DNA of 64,000 nucleotides. Source: an uncultured Parachlamydiaceae bacterium (GTDB lineage: Bacteria > Chlamydiota > Chlamydiia > Chlamydiales > Parachlamydiaceae). The stretch spans positions 320,001 to 384,000 of the forward strand of contig CAVULX010000004.1 of assembly GCA_963742415.1 (NCBI GenBank), given 5' to 3'. The notes beneath the pieces are model-generated. The model did not search any database. It saw nothing but the letters and a program-made list of their open reading frames with translations, and was not told the origin of the DNA. How positions within the stretch are numbered: the first letter of the stretch is position 1; each line of letters begins with the position of its first letter. Both the position numbers and the translations under genes were made by a program. Positions 2 to 1,855 of the stretch are shown here, piece by piece.

Positions 2-118
2 GAAGAGAAAAAACTAACCCAGGTTGAATGGGAAAAAATAGCTATAAGCTTACAGCGCTCGGTTAGTGCCTGTAAAAATAGAACGCAATTATTCAGGCGA
101 ATAGAAAAAAATTCGTAG
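2..118 (+). CDS. 3' end of a Myb/SANT-like protein (partial at window edge)
   Basis: My translation of frame 2: EEKKLTQVEWEKIAISLQRSVSACKNRTQLFRRIEKNS*. W..IA..L.RS..AC..R is the second half of a Myb repeat. Confidence 0.65.
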   Translation, partial: EEKKLTQVEWEKIAISLQRSVSACKNRTQLFRRIEKNS

Positions 119-284
119 CAAAAAGAAAATAACATCAAGCAAAAAAATAGCTTGGAGTTAGATTTTTGAATTCACTTGTGTATAATAATAACCACTGATC
201 TCACTCTGTGGTTACTAATACTATGTTTTTTTCAGTCTATAATATTCGGCTTTTAAATTACAGACGTTATGGAGGTTTTAGCTT

Positions 285-1148
285 ATGTGGCAAGTAAGTT
301 CAAATTTTGGTTCAGATGTGAATGAGAATATAAATGGTTTACCTAATATTCAAGACCCTTATTGGAAATTAGATTTAGGCCTTTTTGACGAAAAGGGTCG
401 AGATATTTCTCAAATCTGGAAGGAAGTGATGTATGGGGAGAAGGGAATTACACCTGATGATTGTTCAACGCTCAAGATTGAAGAGGAAAATAATACTGAA
501 GAGGGACACATAGTCAAAGTAAAGGAAGAGAAGGTTCCAAGCCCTGCAATAGAAAAATGGATCGCCAGCACTCAAGAAAAATATGTCAAATCTCCCTTAG
601 ACTTTTGTGGAAGCAGCGGAGGTGATTTATCCATAGAAAGTCAAAAACCTTCGGATGTTACTTTAACCAATCAACAGCTTCCAAGCTCTTCGACTAAAAA
701 AAGGAAAAGGGATAACATAAATCAATCACACAACGCAAAAAGAAAAAAAAGGGGGCATACATCCAGTGCCTCTCCAAACGGCCCCCACGAAACCTGGACT
801 GATCAAGAAGATAATAAGTTAGCTCAAATCGCTGTAAAATTATTCAACGAAAATTATACACAAAAAATAAAAGAAAATCAGTGGAAATATGTTGCGAAAG
901 AAATGAATGGGCGCACACAGTCGGCATGTAAGAAGAGATTCACTCATTTAAAAAAGACAAATTCAAAACTAAAAGAAGCCTTACGCATCATTAATTTATT
1001 CACACCAGCAGAAAGAAAGGCCTTGAAAAAAGAGGGTAAAATCCTGATTACAGAAGAAACTGCTAAGTTAGAGTTGGAGCCAATAGGAGTCATGATAATG
1101 AGCAAACAGTATCAAAAAAGATCAGACAATTTCACGCTAAGAATGTAA
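285..1148 (+). CDS. Myb/SANT-domain protein with NLS-like basic clusters, putative secreted effector
   Basis: WTDQEDNKL...WKYVAKEMNGRTQSACKKRF fits the Myb repeat consensus; KKRKRD and KRKKRG lie upstream; GGAGG RBS. Confidence 0.75.
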   Translation: MWQVSSNFGSDVNENINGLPNIQDPYWKLDLGLFDEKGRDISQIWKEVMYGEKGITPDDCSTLKIEEENNTEEGHIVKVKEEKVPSPAIEKWIASTQEKYVKSPLDFCGSSGGDLSIESQKPSDVTLTNQQLPSSSTKKRKRDNINQSHNAKRKKRGHTSSASPNGPHETWTDQEDNKLAQIAVKLFNENYTQKIKENQWKYVAKEMNGRTQSACKKRFTHLKKTNSKLKEALRIINLFTPAERKALKKEGKILITEETAKLELEPIGVMIMSKQYQKRSDNFTLRM

Positions 1149-1207
1149 AAAGTACGGATTGGGCTTCAGAGCAGTGTGAATTAAAGACATTTTGGAGGTT
1201 TTAGCTT

Positions 1208-1855
1208 ATGGGGCAAGTGGATTTAAATAGCTTTGAGTGGCTAACTTATTCACAAAATTATGAATCTCTTGAAGGATCTAAGGAAGATTTAAATACTCCT
1301 GACGAAGATATCTGTCGAATCTGGAAAGATGTCATGGATGAAAAGGTTGGCATCGATATTTTATCTTATTGCAAATTAATGCTTGAGGGGGAAAATATAT
1401 CGCCTCTGCGGAATATGGAAGACCCAGTTTTTAAAAAACTAGTCAATCTAGAAGACTTTTTAATGGTTCAAGGCGATGTTAATCTTCGCGCAAATGAAAT
1501 AGACGATTATTTAGGCAAAGGGTTTGCCCATAAGCCAAAAGTTCGCTCAAAAATCAAAAAAGATCTACCTATAAAAAAGAAAACTATACGCAAATGGTCC
1601 AAATTAGAGGAGGAGACGTTACGGACGCTTGCCCTACAAGTGTTCGCAAGGAATGAAAAAAATACAATTTCAGAAGAGCAGATGGATCAAATTAGGCATT
1701 CTTTAAAAGCCATAGGATCGTCACGATCCGATTTAGCATGCCGTGCAAAGCTAGCGAAATTGCTCCACCCTGAACGATCTCAGCTTTATAAAGAACGTGA
1801 AAGAAAGGCTTTTGAAGAAAGACGAAAGCTTGATGCCCTCTCAACCCCTGATTGA
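1208..1855 (+). CDS. Myb/SANT-like (trihelix-type) protein, paralog of 285..1148
   Basis: WSKLEEETL...IGSSRSDLACRAKLAKL; shares the N-terminal DI..IWK.VM..K.GI motif and the TGGAGGTTTTAGCTTATG start region with the upstream gene. Confidence 0.65.
   Translation: MGQVDLNSFEWLTYSQNYESLEGSKEDLNTPDEDICRIWKDVMDEKVGIDILSYCKLMLEGENISPLRNMEDPVFKKLVNLEDFLMVQGDVNLRANEIDDYLGKGFAHKPKVRSKIKKDLPIKKKTIRKWSKLEEETLRTLALQVFARNEKNTISEEQMDQIRHSLKAIGSSRSDLACRAKLAKLLHPERSQLYKERERKAFEERRKLDALSTPD

Follow-up and report, generated by a model that had tools for sequence, protein, structure and literature searches.

Four consecutive genes of an uncultured bacterium of the Parachlamydiaceae, here called A to D, form a lineage-specific tandem family of paralogs that, from their sequences, encode eukaryote-type Myb proteins. 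They lie at the left edge of the window, by which we mean the whole stretch of 64,000 nucleotides (nt) that was analysed (G000:C4:320001-384000, in a source genome of 2.69 Mb on four contigs), and continue leftwards beyond it. All four predicted proteins share one order of parts: an acidic head of about 105-140 residues that is predicted to be disordered, basic clusters, and a basic C-terminal part made up of one or two Myb repeats. We consider it probable, with the reservations weighed below, that they are secreted proteins that reach the nucleus of a host cell and bind DNA or chromatin there.

A preliminary description of the window had reported a tandem array of at least three such genes, the first of which was missing from the track of open reading frames (ORFs). 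The array proved larger: extension of the sequence leftwards beyond the window edge added gene A and brought the count to four, all on the + strand. Gene A (C4:318218-318961) encodes 247 residues with two Myb repeats and lies wholly to the left of the window. Gene B (G000:C4:319360-320118), which encodes 252 residues with two Myb repeats and whose protein is identical to the public-collection entry P0004 (252 residues), is mostly to the left as well; its 3' end, at window positions 2-118 (+), consists of 38 codons and a TAG stop, and covers the second half of the second repeat. B extends past the left window edge, which explains its absence from the ORF track. Gene C (window 285-1148, +) encodes 287 residues, in which an acidic N-terminal part and a double lysine/arginine (K/R) cluster are followed by a single Myb repeat and then by a basic tail. 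Gene D (window 1208-1855, +), the most diverged paralog, encodes 215 residues with an acidic N-terminal and a basic C-terminal part.

Myb repeats and their predicted fold

The curated Pfam cut-offs are 24.4 bits for PF00249 (Myb_DNA-binding) and 22.9 bits for PF13921 (Myb_DNA-bind_6). Both are exceeded by A (42.4 and 47.5 bits, two repeats), by B (49.8 and 40.7 bits, two repeats) and by C (28.3 and 31.1 bits, one repeat). Of the three repeats that the preliminary description had assigned, to B, C and D, the first two are thus confirmed, and the third, in D, is degenerate and matches no Pfam Myb family at E ≤ 10. The 38-residue piece of B that lies in the window reaches 14.0 bits with the Pfam Myb model by itself. 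The repeat of C (window 789-959, +; residues 169-225) scores 93.8 bits against a hidden Markov model (HMM) of the five repeats of A-C, whose training set includes the C repeat. All five of these repeats retain the first and second Trp, and only the first repeat of B also has the third; the basic face of helix 3, A-C-K-[K/N]-R, is kept in all five. Like repeats of different genes resemble each other, with identities of 41% between the first repeats of A and B, 49% between their second repeats, 44% between C and the second repeat of A, and 27% between D and the second-repeat types. The sequences would fit a history in which a two-repeat gene was duplicated and the first repeat was then lost in the line leading to C and D.

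The AlphaFold model of A, for which the four paralogs served as the alignment, agrees with this assignment. Residues 11-120 have a predicted local distance difference test score (pLDDT) below 50 and are predicted to be disordered, and residues 130-247 form two three-helix bundles (helices 132-145, 156-164 and 172-186; 198-215, 221-230 and 235-245) with block pLDDT values of 75-91. The best VIA-align match of the second repeat is repeat R1 of c-Myb (1guu), with Z 7.5 and 1.3 Å over 47 residues at 36% identity. Over both repeats, Cef1 and CDC5L align with Z 7.2-7.6 across 94-103 residues at 24-30% identity, and the root-mean-square deviation of about 12 Å reflects a different angle between the repeats. 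The top rows of the Foldseek search are likewise CDC5L, Cdc5, c-Myb R2R3 and Trichomonas Myb2/3. The fold Z values are modest, and it is their combination with the Pfam scores that makes the Myb assignment of A-C sound. The Myb reading of the preliminary description therefore stands on matches of A, B and C to Myb HMMs and on a modelled Myb-like fold.

The same fold could serve another purpose. The proteins might be secreted and use their repeats as SANT-like modules for binding a histone tail or some other protein of the host, or as CDC5-like RNA or spliceosome modules, rather than as sequence-specific factors. The top structural rows that span both repeats, CDC5L and Cef1, come from spliceosomes; the canonical third Trp is missing in most repeats, and D is without the second Trp too. 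However, the repeats are strongly basic (the C-terminal parts of A-D have net charges of +13 to +20 and isoelectric points (pI) of about 10.1-10.2), the helix 3 face is conserved throughout A-C, and the best Pfam families are DNA-binding Myb models. Judged by how Myb and SANT domains differ, such a helix 3 suits nucleic acids as binding partners better than it suits histone tails. We regard the protein-binding or RNA-binding alternative as quite improbable.

The status of D deserves separate consideration. With default filters, the five-repeat HMM of A-C did not recover D at E ≤ 10 among 11,845 ORFs of the genome. With the HMMER filters off, D scores 12.2 bits over HMM positions 2-53, that is, over the whole repeat, a value reached by none of 2000 shuffles of D, the highest of which scored 10.9. 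The degenerate Myb-like repeat (window 1589-1759, +; residues 128-184) carries Met where the second Trp would stand, and a 5-residue insertion before helix 3. A single-sequence AlphaFold model (pLDDT 41.7) was too poor for a fold search and places helices, at low pLDDT, at residues 132-147, 156-167 and 173-186. The neighbours of D in the ESM Atlas are Myb clusters (score 0.82), which counts as no more than a lead; phmmer against the sequences of the Protein Data Bank (PDB) gave only noise (best E 0.5), and the 283.6 bits of D against the A-D profile come from an alignment of which D is itself a member. Since no Pfam Myb family matches, yet the score over the full repeat lies beyond that of 2000 shuffles, we class D as a diverged member of the family whose Myb-like repeat is degenerate and does not amount to a verified Myb domain.

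The acidic head, the basic clusters and the gene starts

The N-terminal parts of A-D span 105-140 residues with net charges of -7 to -13 and pI values of 4.1-4.7. That of C comprises residues 1-140 (net -8, pI 4.7) and that of D residues 1-105 (net -13, pI 4.1, in front of a C-terminal part of pI 10.2). Pairwise identities among these parts are 16-29%. Two features are common to them, an extreme N-terminus of the form M-[W/G]-x-[V/T] and a motif [I/Y]-[S/C]-[Q/R]-I-W, in short [I/Y]-x-x-I-W, whose I and W do not vary among the four paralogs. The motif lies at window 402-431 (+) in C (residues 40-49, DISQIWKEVM) and at 1307-1336 (+) in D (residues 34-43, DICRIWKDVM), and the N-termini of C and D align across it (BLASTP E = 0.001), in agreement with the shared acidic motif proposed in the preliminary description. 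A helix is modelled over the motif in both A and D, at low confidence. An HMM of the N-terminal module, run against the ORFs of the genome, found the four array genes only, the next best ORF having E = 0.15.

All four proteins have basic clusters ahead of their Myb repeats. They had been noted before the domain in C and D, and their positions are as described, but a strong cluster resembling a nuclear localization signal (NLS) exists only in C. It is bipartite (window 696-752, +; residues 138-156), with KKRKR and KRKKR separated by nine residues, and C is the single case among 1533 genome ORFs of at least 200 residues in which two K/R runs of at least five fall within 25 residues. The N-termini of A-D are without a hydrophobic signal peptide. 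In A and C, S, T, N, Q and P make up 48% of the first 25 residues, which places both in the top 5% of the 1533 ORFs. The proteins are 25-33 kDa in size.

Each of the four genes has an intact reading frame and a GGAGG 3-9 nt 5' of its ATG. The start region of C (window 270-287, +) comprises the GGAGG Shine-Dalgarno site, a 9-nt spacer and the ATG, and the 18 nt of D (window 1193-1210, +) are identical, TGGAGGTTTTAGCTTATG, just as the preliminary description had stated; after one mismatch, a further 7 bases, GGCAAGT, are again the same. The proteins of C and D are only about 21-29% identical. Such DNA identity at the start of otherwise diverged genes suggests that the 5' end is under constraint or, alternatively, that gene conversion has taken place locally. 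The array has a G + C content of 37.2%, compared with 41.3-42.1% for the contigs. A promoter scan found 10 promoter-like sites in the array against a shuffle mean of 10.4, hence no excess, and a terminator scan found no + strand terminator between the array genes.

These data bear on the proposal that the genes are decaying remnants of a transfer from a eukaryote to the bacterium, with no present function. The degenerate repeat of D, the deep divergence of the N-terminal parts and the lower G + C content of the array would suit such an origin. Decay is hard to reconcile with four intact frames, each with its GGAGG site, with a motif and repeat core residues kept despite this divergence, with a start region of C and D preserved at the DNA level, and with three more intact Myb genes elsewhere in the genome. 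We therefore hold it to be very unlikely.

Genomic setting and relatives

The genome is chlamydial, as the preliminary description had supposed, and its gene set is the one expected of an environmental chlamydia that encodes a type III injectisome. It has a gene for the chlamydial histone-like protein Hc1 (68.4 bits), four genes for TLC nucleotide transporters and two FHIPEP (SctV) genes (842 and 722 bits), one of which is followed about 360 nt downstream, on contig C2, by a gene of the HrpJ/CopN family (54.6 bits).

The array begins 318 kb into a contig of 1,336,765 bases and has bacterial genes on both sides. Upstream are genes of a spermidine/putrescine-type ABC transporter and a dehydrogenase; downstream is a gene for a transporter of 445 residues. 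In a synteny comparison for insertion, the right-flank transporter had counterparts of 52-66% identity in all five related genomes, at other positions, and the left flank was matched in one of the five. This last result concerns the dehydrogenase-like ORF of 511 residues and indicates that the whole left flank is variable. Directly upstream of A, outside the window, there is also an ORF of 306 residues (L019:9171-10091, -) whose N-terminus is hydrophobic and which matches nothing in Pfam at E ≤ 0.1.

That host eukaryotic DNA was mis-assembled into the bacterial genome might be suspected from a domain typical of eukaryotes and from the nearest named matches, which are eukaryotic. The location of the array deep inside a long contig between bacterial genes, the Shine-Dalgarno site at every gene, the absence of introns, and a bacterial repeat, dispersed through the genome, that follows directly downstream all speak against it, and we give this explanation hardly any credence.

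The array is not the only Myb locus of the genome. A six-frame search with PF00249 and a limit of E ≤ 1 gave 11 matches, distributed over three loci; nine of these exceed the cut-off. The genome encodes seven Myb-type proteins, all of which except D pass a Pfam cut-off. One of the other loci (G000:C3:202161-203069, +; L020:4161-5069) encodes a protein of 302 residues with four Myb repeats (PF00249, 99 bits over four stretches). This protein has a PKRKRE cluster and a polar N-terminus, and its gene stands alone between a flavodoxin-reductase-like gene and a convergent gene. The other (G000:C3:887165-888361, -; L021:4165-5361) is a tandem pair encoding 168 and 161 residues (PF13921, 48.9 and 24.4 bits). 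The two members are clearly paralogous to each other, and they are flanked by an apparently split P-type ATPase (ORFs of 519 and 221 residues) and by a large glycosyl-hydrolase-like gene.

The full-length family appears to be confined to this genome. A profile of the four paralogs, run against 5.8 billion clustered proteins in a word-indexed search, returned only three of the genome's own proteins. Against 1.84 billion representatives (filter-only HMMER), the profile gave 185 matches at E ≤ 0.001; among the matches listed, only A-D (E ≤ 1e-30) align from profile position 1, and in the other 146 listed the best stretch never begins before position 59 and mostly covers about 118-240, the Myb part. 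Two of the 20 nearest matches carry organism names, and both are eukaryotic Myb proteins, from a chytrid and a beetle; the rest are metagenomic. A scan of genome contigs with the A-D profile matched 169 patterns, none of which was confirmed, and a second scan, with P0006, brought up no more than three Myb matches, all weak and all in unrelated metagenome-assembled genomes. In tblastn comparisons of the eight top matches with 18 loci from relatives, none was identical to a gene of a relative.

Closer relatives tell a similar story. A search of 60 related genomes, which represent 36 genera of this family and 24 further families within the order, found no ortholog of A-D and gave two marginal matches to the Myb part alone. 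PF00249 matches at E ≤ 0.001 in 8 of the 36 genera and in 2 of the 24 other families. Such patchy occurrence is typical of accessory genes engaged in host interaction. One relative of the same family, G010, has a tandem Myb pair (L034:1228-2404, +; 202 and 186 residues) in which a non-Myb head of 90-130 residues precedes one or two C-terminal Myb repeats; this is the layout of A-D, in proteins that cannot be aligned with them outside the repeats. Another relative, G003, encodes a protein of 221 residues with an acidic head and an R2R3-like pair.

The best outside match, P0005 (E 2.3e-21), belongs to a three-gene tandem Myb array (L047:7534-11074, +; 360, 419 and 357 residues) on a metagenomic contig of 86,969 bases, located between an EamA transporter gene and an acetyl-CoA synthetase gene. 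Its proteins have five to six Myb repeats each, from about residue 12 onwards, and lack a long N-terminal head. The contig also carries genes for PHO4, a PhoU-like protein, a pseudouridine synthase, Acs, NifS/NifU and FtsW. Because its housekeeping genes are 32-55% identical to those of the present genome and their local order is partly kept, the bacterium is probably a distant relative.

The distribution bears on whether the proteins leave the bacterium at all. They might instead be its own DNA-binding regulators or nucleoid-associated proteins that use a Myb-like helix-turn-helix. Their translation signals are ordinary bacterial ones on a bacterial contig of 1.34 Mb, no Sec-type or otherwise recognisable export signal was detected in them, and the developmental stages of chlamydiae need DNA-binding proteins, of which Hc1 is present. 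In addition, a free-living control organism, Bacillus subtilis, has a PF00249 match over the cut-off, so that Myb-like domains are not strictly eukaryotic. However, none of the seven Myb proteins has a meaningful NCBIfam match at E ≤ 1 (noise rows of 10-12 bits against cut-offs of 30-221), and the nearest named matches are eukaryotic Myb proteins, not the ordinary bacterial regulators that, according to the preliminary description, would have refuted its reading. That no ortholog was found in the 60 related genomes or elsewhere is unusual for a core chlamydial regulator, an acidic disordered head of 105-140 residues and a double K/R cluster are without obvious use inside a bacterium, and the structural match best backed by sequence identity is with eukaryotic c-Myb/CDC5. 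We judge an internal regulatory role to be unlikely.

A repeated element lies next to the array. Directly 3' of D there is a near-perfect palindrome of 213 nt (window 1924-2137), with arms of 98 nt that are 90% complementary; as RNA, it has a minimum free energy of -163 kcal/mol (z -26). Further copies occur at window 4256-4441, 23109-23301, 31724-31856 and 36735-36916, and the whole genome has 34 merged loci, 24 on C4 and 10 on C3. From its sequence, the palindrome looks like a miniature inverted-repeat element. Its arms match the Rfam family RF01687 (Acido-Lenti-1 RNA; gathering score 37), at 4303-4348 (+) and 4355-4400 (-) with 57.9 and 37.1 bits, and at 1973-2027 (+) and 2033-2087 (-) with 35.0 and 36.4 bits, just under the gathering score; the RF01687 motif is here, therefore, part of the repeated element. 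We considered a link between the palindrome and the Myb array and rejected it, as none of the 34 loci lies within 25 kb of either of the other two Myb loci.

A candidate role in the host nucleus and known systems

An accessory, host-directed role is favoured over that of housekeeping regulators because a eukaryote-type DNA-binding domain is combined with a disordered acidic head and, in one member, with an NLS-like cluster, and because the paralogs have expanded, have no orthologs and are patchily distributed in an obligate intracellular bacterium with an injectisome. The proposed course of events is as follows. The proteins would be made in the bacterium, each gene using its own GGAGG ribosome-binding site, and exported by the type III injectisome through their polar, unstructured N-termini. 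C could then enter the host nucleus by means of its putative classical NLS, and proteins of 25-33 kDa could also do so by diffusion. There the Myb repeats would bind host DNA or chromatin, and the acidic head, first the region of the export signal, would act as an activation or recruitment module. The result would be a reprogrammed transcription of the host, probably a protist, an effect that we infer.

Several points weigh against this reading. Secretion, nuclear entry and binding are all steps that we infer from the genes. The basic clusters of A, B and D are shorter, and no run of four or more K/R residues occurs in them, and in the first 25 residues of B and D the share of S, T, N, Q and P (28% and 36%, background mean 26%) is unremarkable, although this is a weak test. 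D matches no Pfam Myb family, as described above. PF00249 exceeds its cut-off in 9 of the 60 relatives and in 1 of 14 control genomes, so that the rate in relatives is not far above that of the controls, and the control match, in B. subtilis, means that Myb-like folds can serve bacterial regulators. On the structural side, all VIA-align Z values are below 8 and are not decisive alone. Homeodomains reach Z 7.0-7.2 at only 9-18% identity, and because they tie in Z the fold alone cannot separate Myb from homeodomain. Moreover, Foldseek found no match for the A model in the PDB at E ≤ 0.001, and phmmer of A against PDB sequences gave none at E ≤ 0.01. A search of sequencing runs found one DNA run with a 0.07 share of words and no RNA data set for the organism, a result that says nothing on expression or habitat.

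A bolder version of the proposal is that A-D are complete activator mimics, in which a captured Myb module is joined to an acidic activation region that the bacteria evolved themselves, and that, once delivered by type III secretion, each paralog induces a different set of protist genes. The amphipathic helix of the [I/Y]-x-x-I-W motif would then dock onto a host co-activator; we take the motif to resemble, in pattern only, the hydrophobic-x-x-hydrophobic-hydrophobic activation motifs of eukaryotic activators. This version is doubtful, and we offer it tentatively. If it is true, the tandem Myb arrays of other chlamydia-like genomes would constitute a wider, unrecognised class of such proteins.

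The less specific proposal, secretion with binding to host DNA, would already be of consequence. It would show bacteria to be capable of acquiring a DNA-binding domain of eukaryotes and using it against the host, and it would offer a handle on the host genes that a chlamydial symbiont must change. The locus is favourable for such work: its proteins are small and modular (head, basic cluster, Myb repeats) and easily testable, and they form a natural series that runs from two repeats (A and B) through a single one (C) to a degenerate one (D), with similar arrays in other chlamydia-like genomes. The means by which environmental chlamydiae control protist hosts are little understood, and the nuclear effectors of bacteria that we know of are mostly enzymes or adaptors, DNA-binding mimics of transcription factors being rare outside the transcription activator-like (TAL) effectors.

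Neither nuclear effectors nor the eukaryote-like proteins of bacteria associated with amoebae are new in kind. Our full-text search found no description of chlamydial Myb proteins or of a Myb-type nucleomodulin, although supplements of pangenome studies may list such Pfam domains; the main text of a review of nucleomodulins has 'Myb' only in reference to a host MYB that is targeted by an effector (PMC7819608). Expanded eukaryote-like families of the Parachlamydiaceae, such as F-box, BTB and similar families, are described in PMC4209131. PMC10579323 counts 'Myb-like transcription factors' with the eukaryote-like genes that clostridial endosymbionts of protists possess, and names Legionella and Chlamydiota as clades with eukaryote-type proteins in general. 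Families of eukaryote-like genes that are lineage-specific and tandem, with a patchy spread over genera, are found in obligate intracellular bacteria of protists, as in the case of A-D; the domain differs, being Myb in A-D.

Compared with eukaryotic Myb proteins such as c-Myb (R1/R2R3), CDC5L/Cef1, Trichomonas Myb2/Myb3 and SNAPc4, A-C have the three-helix Myb repeat in common, and the succession of acidic region, basic cluster and DNA-binding domain in A-D is like that of a eukaryotic transcription factor. In contrast to those proteins, A-D are products of bacterial genes that use translation signals of the bacterial kind, their repeats have a longer insertion between helices 1 and 2, a third Trp that is usually replaced and a longer linker between repeats, and their N-terminal 105-140 residues are without a relative among the 1.84 billion representatives and the ORFs of the genome.

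Among bacterial proteins, the B. subtilis control match is presumably a Myb/SANT-like regulator of the RsfA/GerR type. Regulators of this type, like A-D, have a Myb-like helix-turn-helix in a bacterium, but are not known to have the acidic disordered head or the NLS-like cluster. NUE, a chlamydial nuclear effector with a SET domain, is a histone methyltransferase. It is likewise a candidate type III substrate that acts in the host nucleus; A-D are without a catalytic domain and look like DNA-binding adaptors. The TAL effectors of Xanthomonas are delivered by type III secretion, carry an NLS, an acidic activation part and DNA-binding repeats, and act as transcription factors in the host. By analogy, the logic proposed for A-D would be the same. 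The DNA-binding modules are unrelated, in that the TAL effectors use repeats of 34 residues where A-D have Myb repeats, and their activation domain and NLS are C-terminal, as opposed to the N-terminal acidic part of A-D. If the proteins are indeed activator mimics, they would be a functional analogue of the TAL effectors that arose independently in the Chlamydiae.

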